From a virus (taxonomy: Duplodnaviria > Heunggongvirae > Uroviricota > Caudoviricetes), in IMG/VR virus record IMGVR_UViG_2737471824_000002: DNA of 12,329 nt; one strand, written 5' to 3'. The notes beneath the pieces were generated by a model. The model saw nothing but the letters and a program-made list of their open reading frames with translations, did no database searches and was not told where the DNA came from. The translations under genes were made by a program, and so were the position numbers. This document shows positions 1 to 9,709 of the stretch, piece after piece (the stretch's first letter is position 1; every line of letters starts with the position of its first letter).

Positions 1-333
1 TGGCTGTTTTACGCGTATGACAGGCTCCGGAAGACGGTTGTTGCGCACGTATTCGGTGAACGCACTATGGCGACGCTGGGGCGTCTTATGAGCCTGCTGT
101 CACCCTTTGACGTGGTGATATGGATGACGGATGGCTGGCCGCTGTATGAATCCCGCCTGAAGGGAAAGCTGCACGTAATCAGCAAGCGATATACGCAGCG
201 AATTGAGCGGCATAACCTGAATCTGAGGCAGCACCTGGCACGGCTGGGACGGAAGTCGCTGTCGTTTTCAAAATCGGTGGAGCTGCATGACAAAGTCATC
301 GGGCATTATCTGAACATAAAACACTATCAATAA
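1..333 (+). CDS. insB: IS1 transposase InsB, C-terminal part (5' end outside window)
   Basis: Open frame from nt 1 to TAA at 331-333; translation matches the InsB C-terminus. Confidence 0.85.
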
Positions 334-348
334 GTTGGAGTCATTACC
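1..348 (+). mobile_element. IS1 insertion sequence, right-hand portion (window begins inside the element)
   Basis: Frame-1 translation from nt 1 matches the C-terminal part of IS1 InsB (…[35 protein letters not shown]…[11 protein letters not shown]), and the sequence ends with the IS1 terminal inverted repeat …ATCAATAAGTTGGAGTCATTACC at 326-348. Recognised from memory of IS1. Confidence 0.9.
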
Positions 349-544
349 TGGCAGCTGAAGGGCCACGCAGACCATTTATCCGGCAAAATTCCACGCGTAA
401 TCCGGTGGTAATTTCTTCTGCATCGCGGAGATTGAGCGCTGAAACATGAAGCTGGACATCGATACGACCATCGGATGGGGTGATAAGACCCTTGCCGCTT
501 TTGCCGTCAAAGGTTTTGACAATTCCTGTCATTTTACGGGACAA
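344..544 (-). CDS. cspF: CspF/CspH-like cold-shock-domain protein, 3' end altered by the IS1 insertion
   Basis: 66-aa [30 protein letters not shown]…[12 protein letters not shown], a CspF/CspH-type paralogue divergent from cspB. The final Arg codon straddles the IS1 end at 347-349 and the stop codon (344-346) lies inside the IS1 inverted repeat, so the native last ~5 codons are replaced. Confidence 0.75.
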
Positions 545-648
545 AAAAATTCCTTAATACTGATAACTTGGCGCACTATACACACGTTCCTGAAGAAAGC
601 TATAGTTTTTTGATGGGGTTGAAGATGGCTGGATGTCTAAAATAAACA

Positions 649-677
649 TTGCTTCATATGTTCAACTATGCGTTAAT
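649..677 (+). promoter_or_regulatory. Putative cspB promoter (cspA-like: -35 TTGCTT, 17-bp spacer, -10 GTTAAT)
   Basis: TTGCTT at 649-654 and GTTAAT at 672-677 with a 17-bp spacer, resembling the cspA promoter (TTGCAT/CTTAAT); this leaves a ~160-nt 5' UTR before the cspB ATG, typical of the cspA family. Confidence 0.45.
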
Positions 678-685
678 GATTGCGT

Positions 686-702
686 CGGTTTGAAGAACAG
701 AC
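686..702 (+). promoter_or_regulatory. Cold-box-like element at the start of the cspB 5' UTR
   Basis: CGGTTTGAAGAACAGAC resembles the cspA cold box (…GGUUUGACGUACAGAC); a GCCGAAAGGC box also occurs at 816-825 just before the SD (TAAGGAA, 832-838). Confidence 0.45.
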
Positions 703-844
703 GATATACGAAGTAGTTTACTAAAGCAGTTCTCATTTCAGGTGTTATTCACTTATTCCTTCTTTGAGTCTCTCCAATTAAGTACGAAGTCGTTTCTGTT
801 ATGCAAACCATTTATGCCGAAAGGCTCAAGTTAAGGAATGTAGA

Positions 845-1060
845 ATGTCAAATAAAATGACTGGTTTAGTAAAATGGTTTAACGCTGATAAAGGTTTCGG
901 CTTTATTTCTCCTGTTGATGGTAGTAAAGATGTGTTTGTGCATTTTTCTGCGATTCAGAATGATAATTATCGAACCTTATTTGAAGGTCAAAAGGTTACC
1001 TTCTCTATAGAGAGTGGTGCTAAAGGTCCTGCAGCAGCAAATGTCATCATTACTGATTAA
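845..1060 (+). CDS. cspB: Cold shock protein CspB
   Basis: 71-aa [74 protein letters not shown] with RNP1/RNP2 cold-shock-domain motifs; matches CspB as I recall it. Confidence 0.95.
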
Positions 1061-1171
1061 AATTCATCGCTCGTCTGTATACGATAACGAAGAAGGCTGA
1101 TGCCTGAGTAGAGATACGGACAGAGTAGTGAATATTGGATCTCTTTAATAAAAAGTAAGGAGGTCCAATAC

Positions 1172-1207
1172 ATGAAACAATGGCTAGCATATTTGGCAAA
1201 ATCTTAA
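1172..1207 (+). CDS. Candidate 11-codon mini-ORF (MKQWLAYLAKS) with a strong Shine-Dalgarno; function unknown
   Basis: TAAGGAGGT at 1156-1164, 7-nt spacer, ATG at 1172, stop TAA at 1205-1207; followed by hairpins (TGCAG…CTGCA 1241-1255; CAGCAG…CTGCTG 1269-1287) and the terminator at 1342-1366. Confidence 0.2.
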   Translation: MKQWLAYLAKS

Positions 1208-1341
1208 TCAGGAAAAGTATGCTAACCATTGTGGTGAAGTGCAGGTTTGCTGCATGAATAGTTTTACAGCAGAAGCTAACTGCTGGCATGGCAAAACAAA
1301 GTGCGTAAGTGGATGACTCCCACAAAAAGCACCACAATCTC

Positions 1342-1366
1342 AAACCCGCTCAGGCGGGTTTTTTAT
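1342..1366 (+). terminator. Rho-independent terminator (mainly plus-strand; weak on the minus strand)
   Basis: Stem AAACCCGC (1342-1349), loop TCAG, stem GCGGGTTT, followed by a T-run (TTTTTTATTAT). On the minus strand the hairpin is preceded by an A-tract and followed by only UUUGAG. Confidence 0.7.
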
Positions 1367-1423
1367 TATCTGCTTTAAATATATTATTAAAATATAAAAA
1401 ATACTTGTTACTAATAAAATCAA

Positions 1424-1594
1424 TCAGGCTACAGCTTTAAGATTTGTCTGGAATACTTTGTTGCAATGAGGGCAGATCAAAAGGGCACCTTTTTGTACTC
1501 TTGAAAAACTGTGTTCTGACTCTTGGGTGCAGTTTGGGCAGGAACATTTAACGAGATAATTACGGCGTGATTTTGAGTTTTTACGTTCTGACAT
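1424..1594 (-). CDS. Small zinc-ribbon protein (CxCxxC…CxxC), function unknown
   Basis: ORF 1424-1645; the internal start at 1594 (MSERKNSKSRRNYLVKCSCPNCTQESEHSFSRVQKGALLICPHCNKVFQTNLKAVA, 56 aa) is preceded by AGGAA, while the upstream ATG at 1645 has no SD. Two Cys pairs ~20 residues apart suggest a zinc ribbon. Convergent with cspB. Confidence 0.45.
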   Translation of the reverse strand: MSERKNSKSRRNYLVKCSCPNCTQESEHSFSRVQKGALLICPHCNKVFQTNLKAVA

Positions 1595-1813
1595 AGGCTT
1601 TTCCTGTATAAATGGCCGTATACAGTACACTAAATATGAAAACATTTCTCGTATTATTATTTTATATATGACTTTCTTTCAAAATAATTACCCACATTTT
1701 TAATGTGTATGTTTTTTTAGCGCCGTTGAGAACAACGTGTGCTGTCAAAACTACCCCGTAGACTCCGATCTTTTCAAACATATTGCACCATCCGTGTACA
1801 TCGGGGTGAGGAT

Positions 1814-2029
1814 ATGAAATCAATGGATAAGTTAACAACAGGTGTTGCCTATGGCACATCGGCGGGTAATGCTGGTTTCTGGGCATTGCAGTTACTCGAT
1901 AAAGTAACTCCGTCACAGTGGGCTGCAATCGGTGTGCTGGGTAGCCTGGTTTTTGGCCTGCTGACGTATCTGACAAATCTTTATTTCAAGATTAAAGAAG
2001 ACAGGCGTAAGGCTGCGAGAGGAGAGTAA
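1814..2029 (+). CDS. essQ: Class II holin / pinholin (phage 21 S-like), dual-start motif MKSM
   Basis: [71 protein letters not shown]; two TMDs and a charged C-terminus; the Met1/Met4 dual start is typical of the holin/antiholin pair of S21. It lies immediately upstream of ydfR and the SAR endolysin. Confidence 0.9.
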
Positions 2030-2033
2030 TCCA

Positions 2034-2341
2034 ATGACTCAAGACTATGAACTGGTTGTGAAAGGAGTCCGTAATTTTGAGAATAAAGTTACGGTAACTG
2101 TAGCCTTACAGGACAAAGAACGCTTTGACGGTGAAATTTTTGACCTGGATGTCGCCATGGACCGTGTTGAAGGAGCTGCGCTGGAGTTTTATGAGGCAGC
2201 AGCCAGAAGGAGCGTCCGGCAAGTCTTCCTGGAAGTAGCAGAAAAATTGTCAGAAAAAGTTGAGTCTTATCTGCAGCATCAGTACTCCTTTAAGATTGAA
2301 AATCCTGCCAATAAGCACGAGCGTCCTCATCATAAATATCT

Positions 2342-2345
<4 letters not shown>
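2034..2345 (+). CDS. ydfR: YdfR-like protein (DUF1327 family as I recall it), lysis-cassette associated, function unknown
   Basis: 103-aa ORF between holin and endolysin, same order as essQ-ydfR-rrrQ in K-12 Qin; its stop overlaps the endolysin start (ATGA at 2342-2345). Confidence 0.75.
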
Positions 2346-3369
<1,024 letters not shown>

Positions 3370-3551
3370 GGTAATATTAAATCGGAACATTTACATCGCG
3401 GAATGTAAAATTTAAATAAAAAGGACTCTTCCATGAGCCAAAATTCCTGAAATCTTAAGGGTAAGATAAAAGGTCTTAATCAGAATGACACGTTTTATTA
3501 ATAAATAAAGCTATTCTTTCATTGCTGTGTTTTTCTTTACAAAAGTAATCC

Positions 3552-6032: not shown

Positions 6033-6578
6033 ATGGAAGTCAACAAAAAGCAGCTGGCTGACATTTTCGGTGCGAGTATCCGTACCATTCAGAACTGGCA
6101 GGAACAGGGAATGCCCGTTCTGCGAGGCGGTGGCAAGGGTAATGAGGTGCTTTATGACTCTGCCGCCGTTATAAGATGGTATGCCGAAAGGGATGCTGAA
6201 ATTGAGAACGAAAAGCTGCGCCGGGAAGTTGAAGAACTGCGGCAGGCCAGCGAGACAGATCTCCAGCCAGGGACTATTGAGTACGAACGCCATCGACTTA
6301 CGCGTGCGCAGGCCGACGCACAGGAGCTGAAAAATGCCAGAGACTCCGCTGAAGTGGTGGAAACCGCATTCTGTACTTTCGTGCTGTCGCGGATCGCAGG
6401 TGAAATTGCCAGTATTCTCGACGGGATCCCCCTGTCGGTGCAGCGGCGTTTTCCGGAACTGGAAAACCGACATGTTGATTTCCTGAAACGGGATATCATC
6501 AAAGCCATGAACAAAGCAGCCGCGCTGGATGAACTGATACCGGGGTTGCTGAGTGAATATATCGAACAGTCAGGTTAA
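6033..6578 (+). CDS. nohA: Terminase small subunit (lambda Nu1-like)
   Basis: 181 aa MEVNKKQLADIFGASIRTIQNWQEQGMPVLRGGGKGNEVLYDSAAVIRWYAERDAEIENEKLRREVEEL…, near-identical to lambda gpNu1 with its N-terminal winged-HTH; overlaps the start of the A-gene fragment as in lambda. Confidence 0.9.
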   Translation: MEVNKKQLADIFGASIRTIQNWQEQGMPVLRGGGKGNEVLYDSAAVIRWYAERDAEIENEKLRREVEELRQASETDLQPGTIEYERHRLTRAQADAQELKNARDSAEVVETAFCTFVLSRIAGEIASILDGIPLSVQRRFPELENRHVDFLKRDIIKAMNKAAALDELIPGLLSEYIEQSG

Positions 6579-6798
6579 CAGGCTGCGGCATTTTGTCCGC
6601 GCCGGGCTTCGCTCACTGTTCAGGCCGGAGCCACAGACCGCCGTTGAATGGGCGGATGCTAATTACTATCTCCCGAAAGAATCCGCATACCAGGAAGGGC
6701 GCTGGGAAACACTGCCCTTTCAGCGGGCCATCATGAATGCGATGGGCAGCGACTACATCCGTGAGGTGAATGTGGTGAAGTCTGCCCGTGTCGGTTAA
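6553..6798 (+). pseudogene. Terminase large subunit (lambda gpA-like), N-terminal 81-codon stump ending at a deletion junction
   Basis: [81 protein letters not shown] matches the first ~81 residues of lambda gpA; the frame then hits TAA (6796-6798) where tail-fibre sequence begins. The ATPase and nuclease domains are absent. Confidence 0.85.
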
Positions 6799-8446
6799 CA
6801 GCACTTCCGAGTCACTGGCGGCAACACCAAAAGCCGTTAAGGCCGCGTATGACCTGGCTAACGGGAAATACACCGCACAGGATGCAACGACAGCACAGAA
6901 AGGGATAATCCAGCTAAGCAGCGCGACCAACAGCACGTCTGAAACGCTTGCCGCGACACCAAAGGCAGTAAAAGCAGCCAATGACAATGCTGAGAAACGT
7001 CTGCAGAAAGATCAGAACGGTGCGGATATCCCTGGCAAAGATACCTTTACGAAAAATATTGGTGCCTGCCGTGCCTTCGGTGGGTCAGTAAGCACAACAA
7101 CAGGAAACTGGACGACTGCACAGTTTATCGAGTGGCTGGATTCTCAGGGAGCATTTAACCATCCATACTGGATGTGCAAGGGTTCCTGGTCTTATGGCAA
7201 TAATAAAATCATTACTGATACTGACTGCGGTAATATTCATCTCGCCGGAGCTGTCATTGAAGTAATGGGGATAAAGTCAGCGATGACGATCCGCATTACC
7301 ACACCGACCACCTCCACTGGTGGTGGAACAACTAACGCCCAGTTTACCTATATTAATCACGGAACAGATTATTCACCTGGCTGGCGAAGGGACTATAACT
7401 CCAGAAATAAGCCAACGGCATCAGAGATCGGGGCGTTACCGTCAGGTGGAACAGCAGTATCATCAGTTAATCTGGCTTCAAAAGGTCGGGTAACCGCGCT
7501 GACAGACAATACGCAGGGGGCAGCAGGTCTTGAGTTATACGAGGTGTATAACAACGGATATCCAACAGCGTATGGAAATATCATTCACCTGAAAGGGATG
7601 ACAGCCGTTGGCGAAGGTGAGTTACTCATCGGCTGGAGTGGTACAAGCGGTGCTCATGCTCCGGCATTTATTCGTTCACGACGGGATACGACCGACGCAA
7701 ACTGGTCGCCGTGGGCGCAGCTTTACACCTCGGCTCATCCTCCTGCAGAGTTTTATCCAGTCGGTGCACCAATCCCGTGGCCATCAGATACCGTTCCGTC
7801 TGGTTATGCCCTGATGCAGGGGCAGACTTTTGACAAATCTGCATACCCGAAACTTGCAGTTGCTTATCCGTCAGGCGTGATCCCTGATATGCGTGGCTGG
7901 ACGATTAAGGGCAAGCCCGCCAGTGGTCGGGCCGTATTATCTCAGGAACAGGACGGCATTAAATCGCACACCCACAGCGCCAGCGCATCCAGTACGGATT
8001 TGGGGACGAAAACCACATCGTCGTTTGATTACGGAACCAAATCCACGAATAACACCGGGGCGCATACCCATAGTATTAGCGGGACCGCAAATAGTGCCGG
8101 TGCGCACCAACACAAGAGTTCCGGTGCATTTGGTGGCACGAACACGAGCATTTTCCCTAATGGTTATACCGCGATTTCAAATCTAAGCGCGGGGATTATG
8201 AGCACAACAAGCGGTAGTGGCCAGACTCGTAATGCAGGGAAGACATCATCAGATGGTGCTCATACCCACTCGCTGTCCGGCACTGCTGCAAGCGCAGGCG
8301 CACATGCACATACTGTCGGTATTGGTGCTCATACGCACTCCGTTGCGATTGGTTCACATGGACACACCATCACCGTTAACGCTGCTGGTAACGCGGAAAA
8401 CACCGTCAAAAACATCGCATTTAACTATATTGTGAGGCTTGCATAA
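6788..8446 (+). pseudogene. stfQ: Side tail fibre protein (lambda Stf-like), N-terminally truncated; only a GTG pseudo-start
   Basis: The C-terminal ~230 aa match the lambda Stf C-terminus ([13 protein letters not shown]…[11 protein letters not shown]…[30 protein letters not shown]…[31 protein letters not shown]); the STSE(S/T)[11 protein letters not shown] motif occurs twice near the 5' end; the central part is unlike lambda. The N-terminal virion-attachment region is missing. Confidence 0.85.
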
Positions 8447-9021
8447 TGGCATTCAGAATGAGTGAACAACCACGGACCATAAAAATTTATAATCTGCTGG
8501 CCGGAACTAATGAATTTATTGGTGAAGGTGATGCATATATTCCGCCTCATACAGGTCTGCCAGCAAACAGTACCGATATTGCACCGCCAGATATTCCGGC
8601 TGGCTTCGTGGCTGTTTTCAACAGTGATGAGTCATCGTGGCATCTCGTTGAAGATCATCGGGGTAAAACGGTTTATGACGTGGCTTCCGGCGACGCGTTA
8701 TTTATTTCTGAACTCGGTCCGTTACCGGAAAATGTTACCTGGTTATCGCCGGAAGGGGAGTTTCAGAAGTGGAACGGCACAGCCTGGGTGAAGGATACGG
8801 AAGCAGAAAAACTGTTCCGGATCCGGGAGGCGGAAGAAACAAAAAACAACCTGATGCAGGTAGCCAGTGAGCATATTGCGCCGCTTCAGGATGCTGCAGA
8901 TCTGGAAATTGCAACGGAGGAAGAAATCTCGTTGCTGGAAGCATGGAAAAAGTATCGGGTATTGCTGAACCGTGTTGATACGTCAACTGCACAGGATATT
9001 GAATGGCCAGCACTGCCGTAG
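8446..9021 (+). CDS. tfaQ: Tail fibre assembly protein (Tfa)
   Basis: 191 aa [54 protein letters not shown]…; start overlaps the stf stop (TAATG at 8444-8448); Tfa-family chaperone adjacent to stf, as in lambda. Confidence 0.85.
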
Positions 9022-9097
9022 GGTAAAACATATAAATTCTATAATTAGATGTATCTTTCCATTTACGGCAAGGAAGGGGGCTTGGAAGACGTAAAGC

Positions 9098-9120
9098 ATC
9101 TCACACCGAGATTATTTTTT
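9098..9120 (+). terminator. Weak candidate terminator between the convergent tfa and pin genes
   Basis: ATCTC-ACACC-GAGAT hairpin (5-bp stem) followed by TATTTTTT; the T-run overlaps the pin stop codon on the opposite strand. Confidence 0.3.
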
Positions 9121-9709
9121 ATATGTCAGGTGTCTGAAGTTTTGCTTTGGCTCTTAAAATGGTTTGCCGCGAGGTTTTGAATTCCCGGGCAATGGCACTT
9201 ATACTTACACCTGACTTAATTCGTTCGAATACCGCCTGTTTCTGTTCTTCATTTAACACAGGTGGTCGACCAAAACGTTTCCCTGCGCCGCGGGCTCTTA
9301 CTATCCCGGAATGAGTGCGTTCAAGTAAAAGGTCTCGTTCAAATTCAGCGACTGCTGAAATTACTTGCATCATCATTTTTCCTGTTGGACTGGTCAGGTC
9401 AATGCCCCCCAATGCTAAGCAATGCACTCTGATACCTGTTTCGGTCAGTTGTTCCACTGTTTTCCTGATATCCATTGCATTACAACCAAGGCGATCCAGT
9501 TTTGTCACAATCAATTGATCACCACATTTCAGGCGAGCAAGCAACCGGTTAAAACCAGGACGCTCACTGGTTGCTGCTGAGCCGCTAATGTGTTCTTCGA
9601 TTATTTGCTGAGGTTTGATTTTAAAACCTGCACTTTCGATTTCCCGGCGTTGATTTTCGGTGGTCTGATCCAGCGTTGATATCCGACAGTAAGCAAAAAT
9701 TTGAGACAT
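9119..9709 (-). CDS. pinQ: Pin-family serine DNA invertase (Gin/Hin/Cin/Pin resolvase-invertase family)
   Basis: 196 aa [75 protein letters not shown]… with the catalytic Ser in the YxRxST motif near the N-terminus and a C-terminal HTH ([18 protein letters not shown]). Confidence 0.9.

Follow-up and report, generated by a model that had tools for sequence, protein, structure and literature searches.

The window, a stretch of 12,329 nucleotides of viral DNA, has the gene order nohA-gpA'-stf'-tfaQ, and a J-lom-stf-tfa arrangement is not found in it. The features of the stf fragment and its neighbors are listed in Table 1. ORF calling yields a frame of 552 residues with a GTG start, and nucleotides 6797-8446 within it are very probably the 3' 549 codons of a lambdoid stf gene in a Qin-type defective prophage. 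A search of NCBIfam returns no family for either the whole ORF or its central part. The phage_tail_N domain (PF08400) is missing from the window ORF, whereas Pfam locates it in residues 1-134 of the intact allele; the 475 residues that the remnant lacks comprise phage_tail_N and the shaft. The sequence-only reading had started the fragment at 6798, a position that coincides with the deletion junction but lies one base out of frame, giving stops in the translation.

Table 1. Features of the stf remnant and adjoining genes, in coordinates of the window
Feature	Position	Strand	Remarks
Terminase large subunit (gpA), N-terminal remnant	6553..6798	+	81 codons; weak Pfam GpA_ATPase match; TAA made at the junction
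ORF with the stf remnant	6788..8446	+	aa 4-552 equal intact Stf residues 476-1024; 100% identity over 549 aa
Deletion junction, 2-bp TA microhomology	6796..6797	.	gpA codon 81 joined to stf codon 476, out of frame
Phage_fiber_2 repeat, copy 1	6797..6853	+	aa 4-22; 5' half removed by the deletion
Phage_fiber_2 repeat, copy 2, complete	6887..7009	+	aa 34-74
Knob A, Mu S'(G-)/P7 gpS-type shaft module with three Cys	6986..7456	+	aa 67-223
Knob B, second shaft module, ending in the FIRSRRD... motif	7457..7750	+	aa 224-321
Collar, N-terminal part	7751..7963	+	aa 322-392, counterpart of T4 gp37 D10 811-881; 2xgf alignment
Needle stem, descending half	7964..8113	+	aa 393-442; HxH-1, -2 and -3 are His 394/396, 426/428 and 440/442
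Hypervariable tip segment, predicted receptor-binding head	8114..8260	+	aa 443-491, between HxH-3 and HxH-4
Needle stem, ascending half	8261..8392	+	aa 492-535; HxH-4 to -7 are His 492/494, 506/508, 515/517 and 524/526
Collar, C-terminal part	8393..8443	+	aa 536-552, counterpart of T4 1010-1026
tfaQ, cognate tail-fibre assembly chaperone	8446..9021	+	Pfam Caudo_TAP, E = 3.6e-43; start overlaps the stf stop codon
pinQ, Din-family serine invertase	9119-9709	-	Resolvase, E = 2.5e-36, plus HTH_7; 98 bp downstream of tfaQ

Terminase A homology stops at 6797. The junction was mapped by a three-way comparison of the window with one locus in which gpA continues (L002) and another that retains intact stf (L006); in FORC_082 and DLI.5a, the gpA piece likewise runs on as a longer gpA fragment. 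At the 2-bp TA microhomology, an illegitimate deletion placed stf codon 476 directly behind terminase A codon 81 in a different reading frame. This event very probably removed all head and tail genes, the N-terminal tail-attachment domain of the fibre, and its Ala/Ser-rich shaft; judging from the lambda map, roughly 20 kb may have been lost. The exact junction sequence occurs in 0 of 5,426 complete E. coli genomes.

Intact versions of the gene occupy this locus, ydfJ/Qin, in E. coli W and 88-3493, which encode Stf proteins of 1024 residues (WP_000279140.1 and WP_000279080.1) within a J-lom-stf-tfaQ-pinQ-ydfK-ydfJ arrangement. Residues 476-1024 of these proteins are 100% identical to the remnant, and the module order, tfaQ and pinQ are the same; the window differs in having neither residues 1-475 nor any of the upstream tail genes. 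The Stf proteins of the viable lambdoid phages PhiR42_1, PhiR26_1 and mEp460_ev081 share this architecture at 90-91% identity. The central part is present in about 800 of the 5,426 complete E. coli genomes (coverage of 80% or more), and the identical mosaic is intact in hundreds of genomes. Because intact alleles are 100% identical and PhiR42_1 Stf is 91% identical, the mosaic is older than the deletion and widespread, in agreement with the earlier suggestion that the N-terminus was lost after the mosaic had arisen. The presence of the mosaic in isolated phages as well as in about 800 genomes rules out an assembly artefact or chimera.

Strain K-12 carries a more reduced form. Its StfQ (b1547, 320 aa) lies at the same locus between flanks that are 99.8-99.9% identical in DNA, and has the same tip and TfaQ, but a further 929 bp (window 6562-7490) is absent, and with it gpA', the two repeats, all of knob A and the beginning of knob B. 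In K-12 the genes are fused in frame as gpA(VNI)::Stf and read from the gpA start codon, whereas the window junction is out of frame. Together with the gpV::Stf fusion of FORC_082, the window allele and the 929 bp shorter K-12 stfQ show how one prophage has decayed step by step and independently.

The window remnant is probably not translated, because its ORF lacks an ATG, does not share the frame of gpA', and offers only a GTG after GGTGA. By inspection, this GGTGA is positioned 9 nt before GTG 6788, where translation could still start. In the window, the remnant should be unable to act as a fibre.

The 5' end of the remnant consists of Phage_fiber_2 repeats (PF03406), which Pfam detects in two stretches with E = 7.6e-32 (109.1 bits against a cut-off of 22). 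Two N-proximal repeat copies had been recognized from the sequence, and both are present: segments aa 4-22 and aa 48-66 share 42 of 57 nucleotides. The description of the repeat as duplicated holds as far as the number of copies goes, but what is seen is simply a known Pfam fibre repeat occurring twice. Upstream DNA homology to lambda is confined to 6879-6972 (82%), at repeat copy 2.

The mosaic character of the protein, with a centre unlike lambda Stf, is confirmed by both BLASTP and DNA comparison. BLASTP alignment to the reconstructed Ur-lambda Stf (774 aa) is limited to aa 18-75 and 323-552, with no significant match for aa 67-322, and no lambda homology is detected at the DNA level over 6973-7762. 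The centre, ~255 residues with no lambda counterpart, is thus not colinear with lambda Stf. Its three Cys residues (aa 94, 130 and 147) all fall in the first of two modules.

This central region is composed of two shaft knob modules. Knob A matches residues 178-334 of the solved Mu(-) fibre 8ju3 with E = 8e-69; its DNA (7004-7407) is 72.5% identical to Mu Sv', and the protein is 72% identical to P7 gpS 670-815. 8JU3 is the Mu(-) tail fibre S' (gp52; Mori et al. 2024, as cited in PMC11821841). The AlphaFold2 (AF2) model has pLDDT values of about 80-93 across most of knob A. With the AF2 model of the centre, Foldseek retrieves tail fibres: 8ju3 ranks first (E = 4e-21), ahead of the C-terminus of T4 gp34 and of R-pyocin fibres; the alignment to 8ju3 spans 252 columns and includes both knobs. 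In P7 gpS, the stretch that corresponds to knob B (about 507-608) is well conserved, with 52% identity over the whole 162-residue alignment, and knob B matches phrog_3299, phrog_22609 and phrog_37852. Its similarity to the Mu S' C-terminus amounts to a weak motif match (E = 0.005), and knob B alone finds no match in a PDB sequence search at E up to 10. For the centre, Pfam yields nothing beyond a Gp34_trimer match below threshold (19.7 bits; cut-off 27). Across 40 homologues, 26 columns of knob A are invariant, and this module is joined to at least two different distal ends: in one case the C-terminus of Mu S', in the other knob B followed by the gp37 tip. The distal half of the centre, from knob B onward, is variable among homologues.

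The C-terminal 231 residues form a T4 gp37-type tip. Pfam identifies the Collar domain (PF07484) at aa 326-373 with 44.3 bits against a cut-off of 24; the collar limits in Table 1 are taken from PMC6957217. Residues 322-552 align with chain residues 28-242 of 2xgf_A (E = 2.6e-84), and the tip is 66.5% identical to T4 gp37 813-1026 over 230 aa. As proposed earlier, the C-terminus is lambda-like and rich in His repeats: aa 323-552 are 69.7% identical to lambda Stf 530-774 and contain seven HxH motifs. These motifs account for all 14 His residues of the last 231 aa; shuffling 20,000 times gave a mean of 0.78 HxH and a maximum of 5, and no shuffle reached 7. HxH-1, -2 and -3 correspond one-to-one to T4 His 883/885, 915/917 and 929/931, and HxH-4 to -7 to His 966/968, 980/982, 989/991 and 998/1000. 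The identification of the repeats as gp37-type metal-needle motifs therefore stands, the correspondence covering all seven HxH of T4 gp37, including the iron-binding pair His929/His931. The T4 needle holds seven irons coordinated by His residues such as H929 (PMC6957217). The motifs are also conserved among homologues: in a sample of 150 representatives at 50% clustering, four of them, including the last three, are at 100%, and the other three are at 77-95% per position. With the centre not colinear with lambda Stf and the HxH repeats conserved, neither observation that would have spoken against the sequence-only reading was made.

Within the tip, the stretch from HxH-3 to HxH-4 is the one place where similarity collapses, in protein and DNA alike. 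Positions 8083-8266 show DNA homology to neither lambda nor T4. Column identity within aa 443-491 is 10-35% at low coverage, compared with >90% in much of the flanks among the 150 representatives, although the alignment inside this segment is unreliable and the exact tip boundaries are approximate. The segment includes the counterpart of T4 tip subdomain 932-959, to which the T4 receptor-contact residues map (PMC6957217, PMC9659904). Both the iron-binding His residues of T4 gp37 and residues 933-949 of its tip are essential (PMC6957217). Conserved flanks around a receptor-specific insert of 30-70 aa are typical of the gp37-type family (PMC9659904). By homology to 2XGF and from T4 genetics, the tip would be trimeric and bind iron, and its hypervariable segment would determine specificity. 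An AF2 monomer model of aa 322-552 has a pLDDT of 42.7 and is unusable, as expected for an intertwined, metal-bound trimer. We found nothing in the literature on the receptor of the PhiR and mEp phages with this Stf type.

These features bear on the earlier proposal that the Cys-containing centre of ~255 residues is the receptor binder, and that its replacement relative to lambda Stf changed specificity. The centre has no lambda counterpart, its distal half from knob B onward varies among homologues, and its structural neighbours include R-pyocin fibres, which bind target cells. Nevertheless, we regard this proposal as very unlikely. Downstream of the centre comes a gp37-type tip that is complete and has a hypervariable insert of its own, and T4 makes its receptor contacts in the tip subdomain (PMC6957217). 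Knob A, with its invariant columns, is highly conserved among fibres that carry different distal ends; it occupies a mid-fibre position in Mu(-), and the order of the knobs is reversed in P7 gpS. The central region is thus probably not the receptor binder, though the knob domains could make secondary receptor contacts. The specificity determinant to examine is aa 443-491 rather than the centre.

Homology, domain order, junction and conservation are established by these comparisons, and on the model that we favor, the intact Stf, modular and 1024 aa long, would be a trimeric fibre. From the N-terminus, phage_tail_N is followed by a long shaft, two Phage_fiber_2 repeats, knob A, knob B, and the T4-gp37-type collar and needle. 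The needle would be held together by seven metal sites, each built from one HxH motif of each of the three chains. Each chain is predicted to descend the needle, make the hypervariable head (aa 443-491) that touches the receptor, and then ascend. TfaQ, encoded directly downstream, is the putative folding chaperone; it is 94.8% identical to lambda Tfa and 30% identical to T4 gp38. The distal needle and tfa belong to a single block, given the 94% DNA identity to lambda from 8309 to 9011.

Could the truncated fibre be expressed together with TfaQ to the benefit of the host, for instance by keeping other phages from adsorbing? The e14 fragment StfE2, made after PinQ-mediated inversion, offers a precedent, for which an adsorption-block effect is reported (PMC12529663). 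Tip, chaperone and pinQ are kept at 99.8-100% identity across many decayed Qin prophages; there are many independent upstream fusions (gpA, gpV, Nu1, Lom and portal); K-12 StfQ is read in frame from the gpA start; and the window has GGTGA before its GTG. However, the window junction is out of frame with gpA' and the ORF has no ATG, the survival of the 3' end is in part a matter of ascertainment, as the query was the C-terminus, and the effects described in PMC12529663 concern e14 StfE2 and not StfQ, with inversions only in e14. We therefore judge a host-serving product to be very unlikely. Also very unlikely is the broader idea that the tip-TfaQ-PinQ block, present in many Qin prophages that decayed independently, is kept by selection, with the truncated, chaperone-folded tip as a host-beneficial factor acting, for instance, in receptor or adsorption block; if so, the window allele would be a longer intermediate that still has two extra knob modules.

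It is extremely unlikely that stf-tfa is a present or recent PinQ-switched invertible host-range cassette of the Mu G, P1/P7 C or e14 P type, with the Mu S'-like module marking the start of the variable part: knob A is homologous to Mu Sv' from just after the gix position, P7 Sv also matches, and pinQ is close by, but the e14 pix repeat has no match when up to 3 mismatches are allowed, the core pattern is matched no more often than expected by chance, suitable inverted repeats are missing from the flanks, the FTKNIGA-encoding sequence matches gix at about 12 of 27 positions (manual count), there is no second, oppositely oriented stf/tfa (Sv'/U') set and the tfaQ-pinQ gap is just 98 bp, and no inversions were found in Qin (PMC12529663).

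The remnant is the back half of a well-known type of tail-fibre gene in a decayed E. coli prophage, and as such it is already known. The correct label is an stf pseudogene remnant (the C-terminal 549 of 1024 codons) with a gp37-type tip, not a novel fibre, and its importance beyond correct annotation is small.

Among known fibres, Ur-lambda Stf, which has a gp37-like tip and binds OmpC (PMC12617516), shares the Phage_fiber_2 repeat, the collar, the HxH needle and the C-terminus with the window fibre. Lambda Stf differs in its single repeat (two in the window), in a stretch of 139 unrelated residues (aa 391-529) in place of knobs A and B, in its eight HxH motifs and extra FDYGTK repeat (seven motifs in the window), and in its tip insert. 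The T4 gp37 tip (2XGF; D10 and D11) has the same split collar, seven in-register HxH motifs, and a downstream chaperone gene; its insert between HxH-3 and HxH-4 is about 34 residues long, compared with about 49 in the window, and unrelated in sequence, as are the upstream parts of T4 gp37 to the rest of the window fibre. Residues 111-328 of Mu S' are 60% identical to window aa 32-215, and Mu S' and P7/P1 gpS have Phage_fiber_2 repeats upstream, as the window fibre does. At the distal end, the C-terminal domains of Mu S' contrast with the gp37-type tip of the window fibre, and gix/cix/pix sites and an alternative variable set are missing from the window. Finally, the knobs run B then A in P7 gpS and A then B in the window. 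This reversal neatly illustrates how tail fibres are shuffled at the level of domains, which has long been recognized and was reportedly described by Haggard-Ljungquist et al. in 1992 and by Sandmeier in 1994.

The sequence observation of a mosaic tail-fibre fragment with a duplicated repeat and an HxH-rich end is confirmed. Its proposed start at 6798 lies one base out of frame, though it coincides with a true discontinuity, since terminase A homology ends at 6797. The motif NSTSE(S/T)[11 protein letters not shown] occurs in two copies (residues 4-22 and 48-66), which have 42 of 57 nucleotides in common, and the ORF matches Pfam Phage_fiber_2 with an E-value of 7.6e-32. Ur-lambda Stf, the 774-residue lambda side tail fibre, was reconstructed by mending the PaPa frameshift. 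Only residues 18-75, from the repeat, and 323-552 (69.7% identity) are alignable to it; residues 67-322 match nothing in lambda at the protein or DNA level, which bears out the claim of a mosaic.

This centre comprises knob A (residues 67-223) and knob B (224-321). Knob A matches residues 178-334 of the solved Mu(-) fibre S' (8ju3) with E = 8e-69; Mu Sv' DNA is 72.5% identical to window 7004-7407, and residues 670-815 of phage P7 gpS are 72% identical to knob A. The knob retains 26 invariant columns among 40 homologues and is found joined to distal ends of two or more kinds. Knob B has no direct match in a PDB sequence search and matches residues ~507-608 of P7 gpS. An AF2 model of residues 60-331 has a mean pLDDT of 72, with most of knob A at ~80-93. 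Foldseek with this model returns 8ju3 first (E 4e-21, 252 columns), followed by the C-terminal region of T4 gp34 and by R-pyocin fibres; all of the neighbors named are tail fibres. We read both knobs as shaft modules. The sequence-only reading had taken the Cys-containing centre as the likely receptor-binding part and its exchange as a possible change of specificity; neither is supported, as the centre is made up of shaft modules that are conserved and portable, and the specificity tip downstream of them is intact. A 22-nt direct repeat (7115-7136 and 8986-9007, 82% identical) translates to TAQFIEW within knob A and to TAQDIEW at the TfaQ C-terminus, and is probably due to chance.

The tip (residues 322-552) aligns with the T4 gp37 tip structure 2xgf at E = 2.6e-84 and 66.5% identity. 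Its domains were assigned by mapping onto the published T4 gp37 limits: D10 collar, 811-881 and 1010-1026; D11 stem, 882-931 and 960-1009; tip, 932-959 (PMC6957217). The last 231 residues contain 14 His, all within seven HxH motifs; shuffling yields a mean of 0.78 motifs, with seven reached in 0 of 20,000 trials. These motifs align with T4 His 883/885, 915/917, 929/931, 966/968, 980/982, 989/991, and 998/1000. HMMER was run exhaustively against 1.84 billion representatives, and the best 150 were aligned together with T4 and lambda. In this alignment four of the HxH motifs show no variation; His makes up 94-95% at 426/428 and, where aligned, 77-92% at 440/442 and 492/494, while identity falls to 10-35% in columns 443-491. 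The agreement with T4 and the four invariant motifs uphold the suggested link between HxH repeats and metal. Lambda DNA homology is 83-87% over 7763-8082, absent over 8083-8266, and 78-94% over 8267-9011, continuing through tfaQ, a profile that mirrors the protein conservation pattern of the tip. The AF2 model of the tip monomer is unusable.

By homology, the intact protein would be a trimeric side fibre whose distal needle may be stapled by seven metal ions, each held by six His (one HxH per chain from three chains), and receptor contact would be made through a head formed by residues 443-491. The iron-binding His are essential in T4, as are the residues of the tip, and the T4 needle binds both OmpC and LPS (PMC6957217). 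Members of the family carry a 30-70-residue receptor-specific insert between conserved flanks (PMC9659904), and Ur-lambda Stf is a gp37-like OmpC binder (PMC12617516).

Residues 4-552 are 100% identical to 476-1024 of the intact 1024-residue Stf of E. coli W and strain 88-3493, which is encoded at the same chromosomal site in both (J-lom-stf-tfaQ-pinQ-ydfK-ydfJ). The 475 residues lost from the window include PF08400, the N-terminal domain of prophage tail fibres, and the Ala/Ser-rich shaft. Lambdoid phages isolated on E. coli hosts, including PhiR42_1, PhiR26_1, and mEp460_ev081, share this architecture at 90-91% identity, and ~800 of 5,426 complete E. coli genomes contain the central part at ≥80% coverage. 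The mosaic therefore predates the deletion, is widespread, and is functional in phages, in keeping with the order of events proposed earlier. The N-terminal deletion is likewise verified: gpA codon 81 is fused to stf codon 476 across a 2-bp TA microhomology. The junction supplies gpA' with a new TAA stop and puts stf out of frame. This exact junction occurs in 0 of the 5,426 genomes. With no attachment domain and no tail genes in the window, the remnant is presumably unable to act as a fibre.

Other endpoints exist in the same prophage. In E. coli FORC_082 (L002, 5376-7367), a 663-residue ORF that carries the annotation 'phage tail tube protein' fuses gpV 1 to ~155 in frame with Stf from repeat 2 onward, and is an independent deletion. 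In DLI.5a, more of gpA and less of stf survives than in the window. K-12 MG1655 is missing exactly 6562-7490 (929 bp), with both flanks 99.8-99.9% identical; K-12 StfQ (320 residues) is therefore an in-frame fusion of the first three gpA codons (VNI) to Stf, and, given the flanks, this allele could be a second deletion nested in a window-type intermediate. Further fusion partners of Stf tips in protein searches are gpA, Nu1, Lom, portal, and ClpP-like domains.

As a whole, the window represents a defective lambdoid prophage of the Qin type in E. coli, with the gene order IS1 fragment, cspF, cspB, essQ, ydfR, rrrQ, rzpQ, cspI, gnsB, ydfO, ynfO, nohA, gpA remnant, ORF, tfaQ, pinQ, ydfK, ydfJ. 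MG1655 Qin is 99.8-99.9% identical to it, except for the 929-bp stretch and the first 398 bases. Positions 1-398, which have no alignment to MG1655, adjoin cspF and encode an IS1 transposase C-terminal fragment (ORF 67-333; DDE_Tnp_IS1, E 5.7e-48).

Coordinates of the stf remnant, its neighbors, and its tip domains
Feature	Position	Strand	Remark
nohA	6033-6578		
gpA remnant	6553-6798		
stf-remnant ORF	6788-8446	+	552 aa, GTG start
tfaQ	8446-9021		
pinQ	9119-9709	minus	Resolvase + HTH_7
Collar	aa 322-392 and 536-552		T4 gp37 mapping
Stem halves	aa 393-442 and ~480/492-535		T4 gp37 mapping
Insert, HxH-3 to HxH-4	aa 443-491		T4 gp37 mapping

The Din-family invertase gene pinQ lies 98 bp 3' of tfaQ (gap 9022-9118) and is transcribed toward it; this adjacency and the Mu Sv' homology would suit an stf-tfa segment acting as an invertible cassette. 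Such a cassette is unlikely, however, as the window has no pix/gix-like crossover site, flanking inverted repeat, or alternative variable set, and a recent study saw PinQ-driven inversion only in e14, where PinQ is reported to act in trans on the P segment (PMC12529663). The stretch 7046-7075, coding for [10 protein letters not shown], resembles the Mu gix region encoding FIQNLGLQ at ~12 of 27 positions (manual count), a degenerate echo that is not plausible as a functional gix site. The same motif also occurs within Mu Sv'. StfE2, a truncated fragment of the e14 fibre, is reported to block adsorption of T2 (PMC12529663), which gives a low probability of a host function for StfQ-type tips that have been retained, although the window allele is out of frame.

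The ORF is a gene remnant of an ordinary kind that has been annotated before, with K-12 stfQ as its shorter sibling. Lambda Stf has eight HxH motifs (residues 601-748) and one extra FDYGTK repeat, whereas the window ORF (7964-8392) and T4 gp37 have seven; we read the lambda needle as one metal layer longer, with corresponding insertions in both the descending and the ascending strand. TfaQ and lambda Tfa share 94.8% identity. In P7 gpS (L010), knob B lies upstream of knob A, so that the module order is reversed relative to the window ORF, a clear domain-level permutation between tail fibres. The mosaic is real, yet typical of tail fibres.
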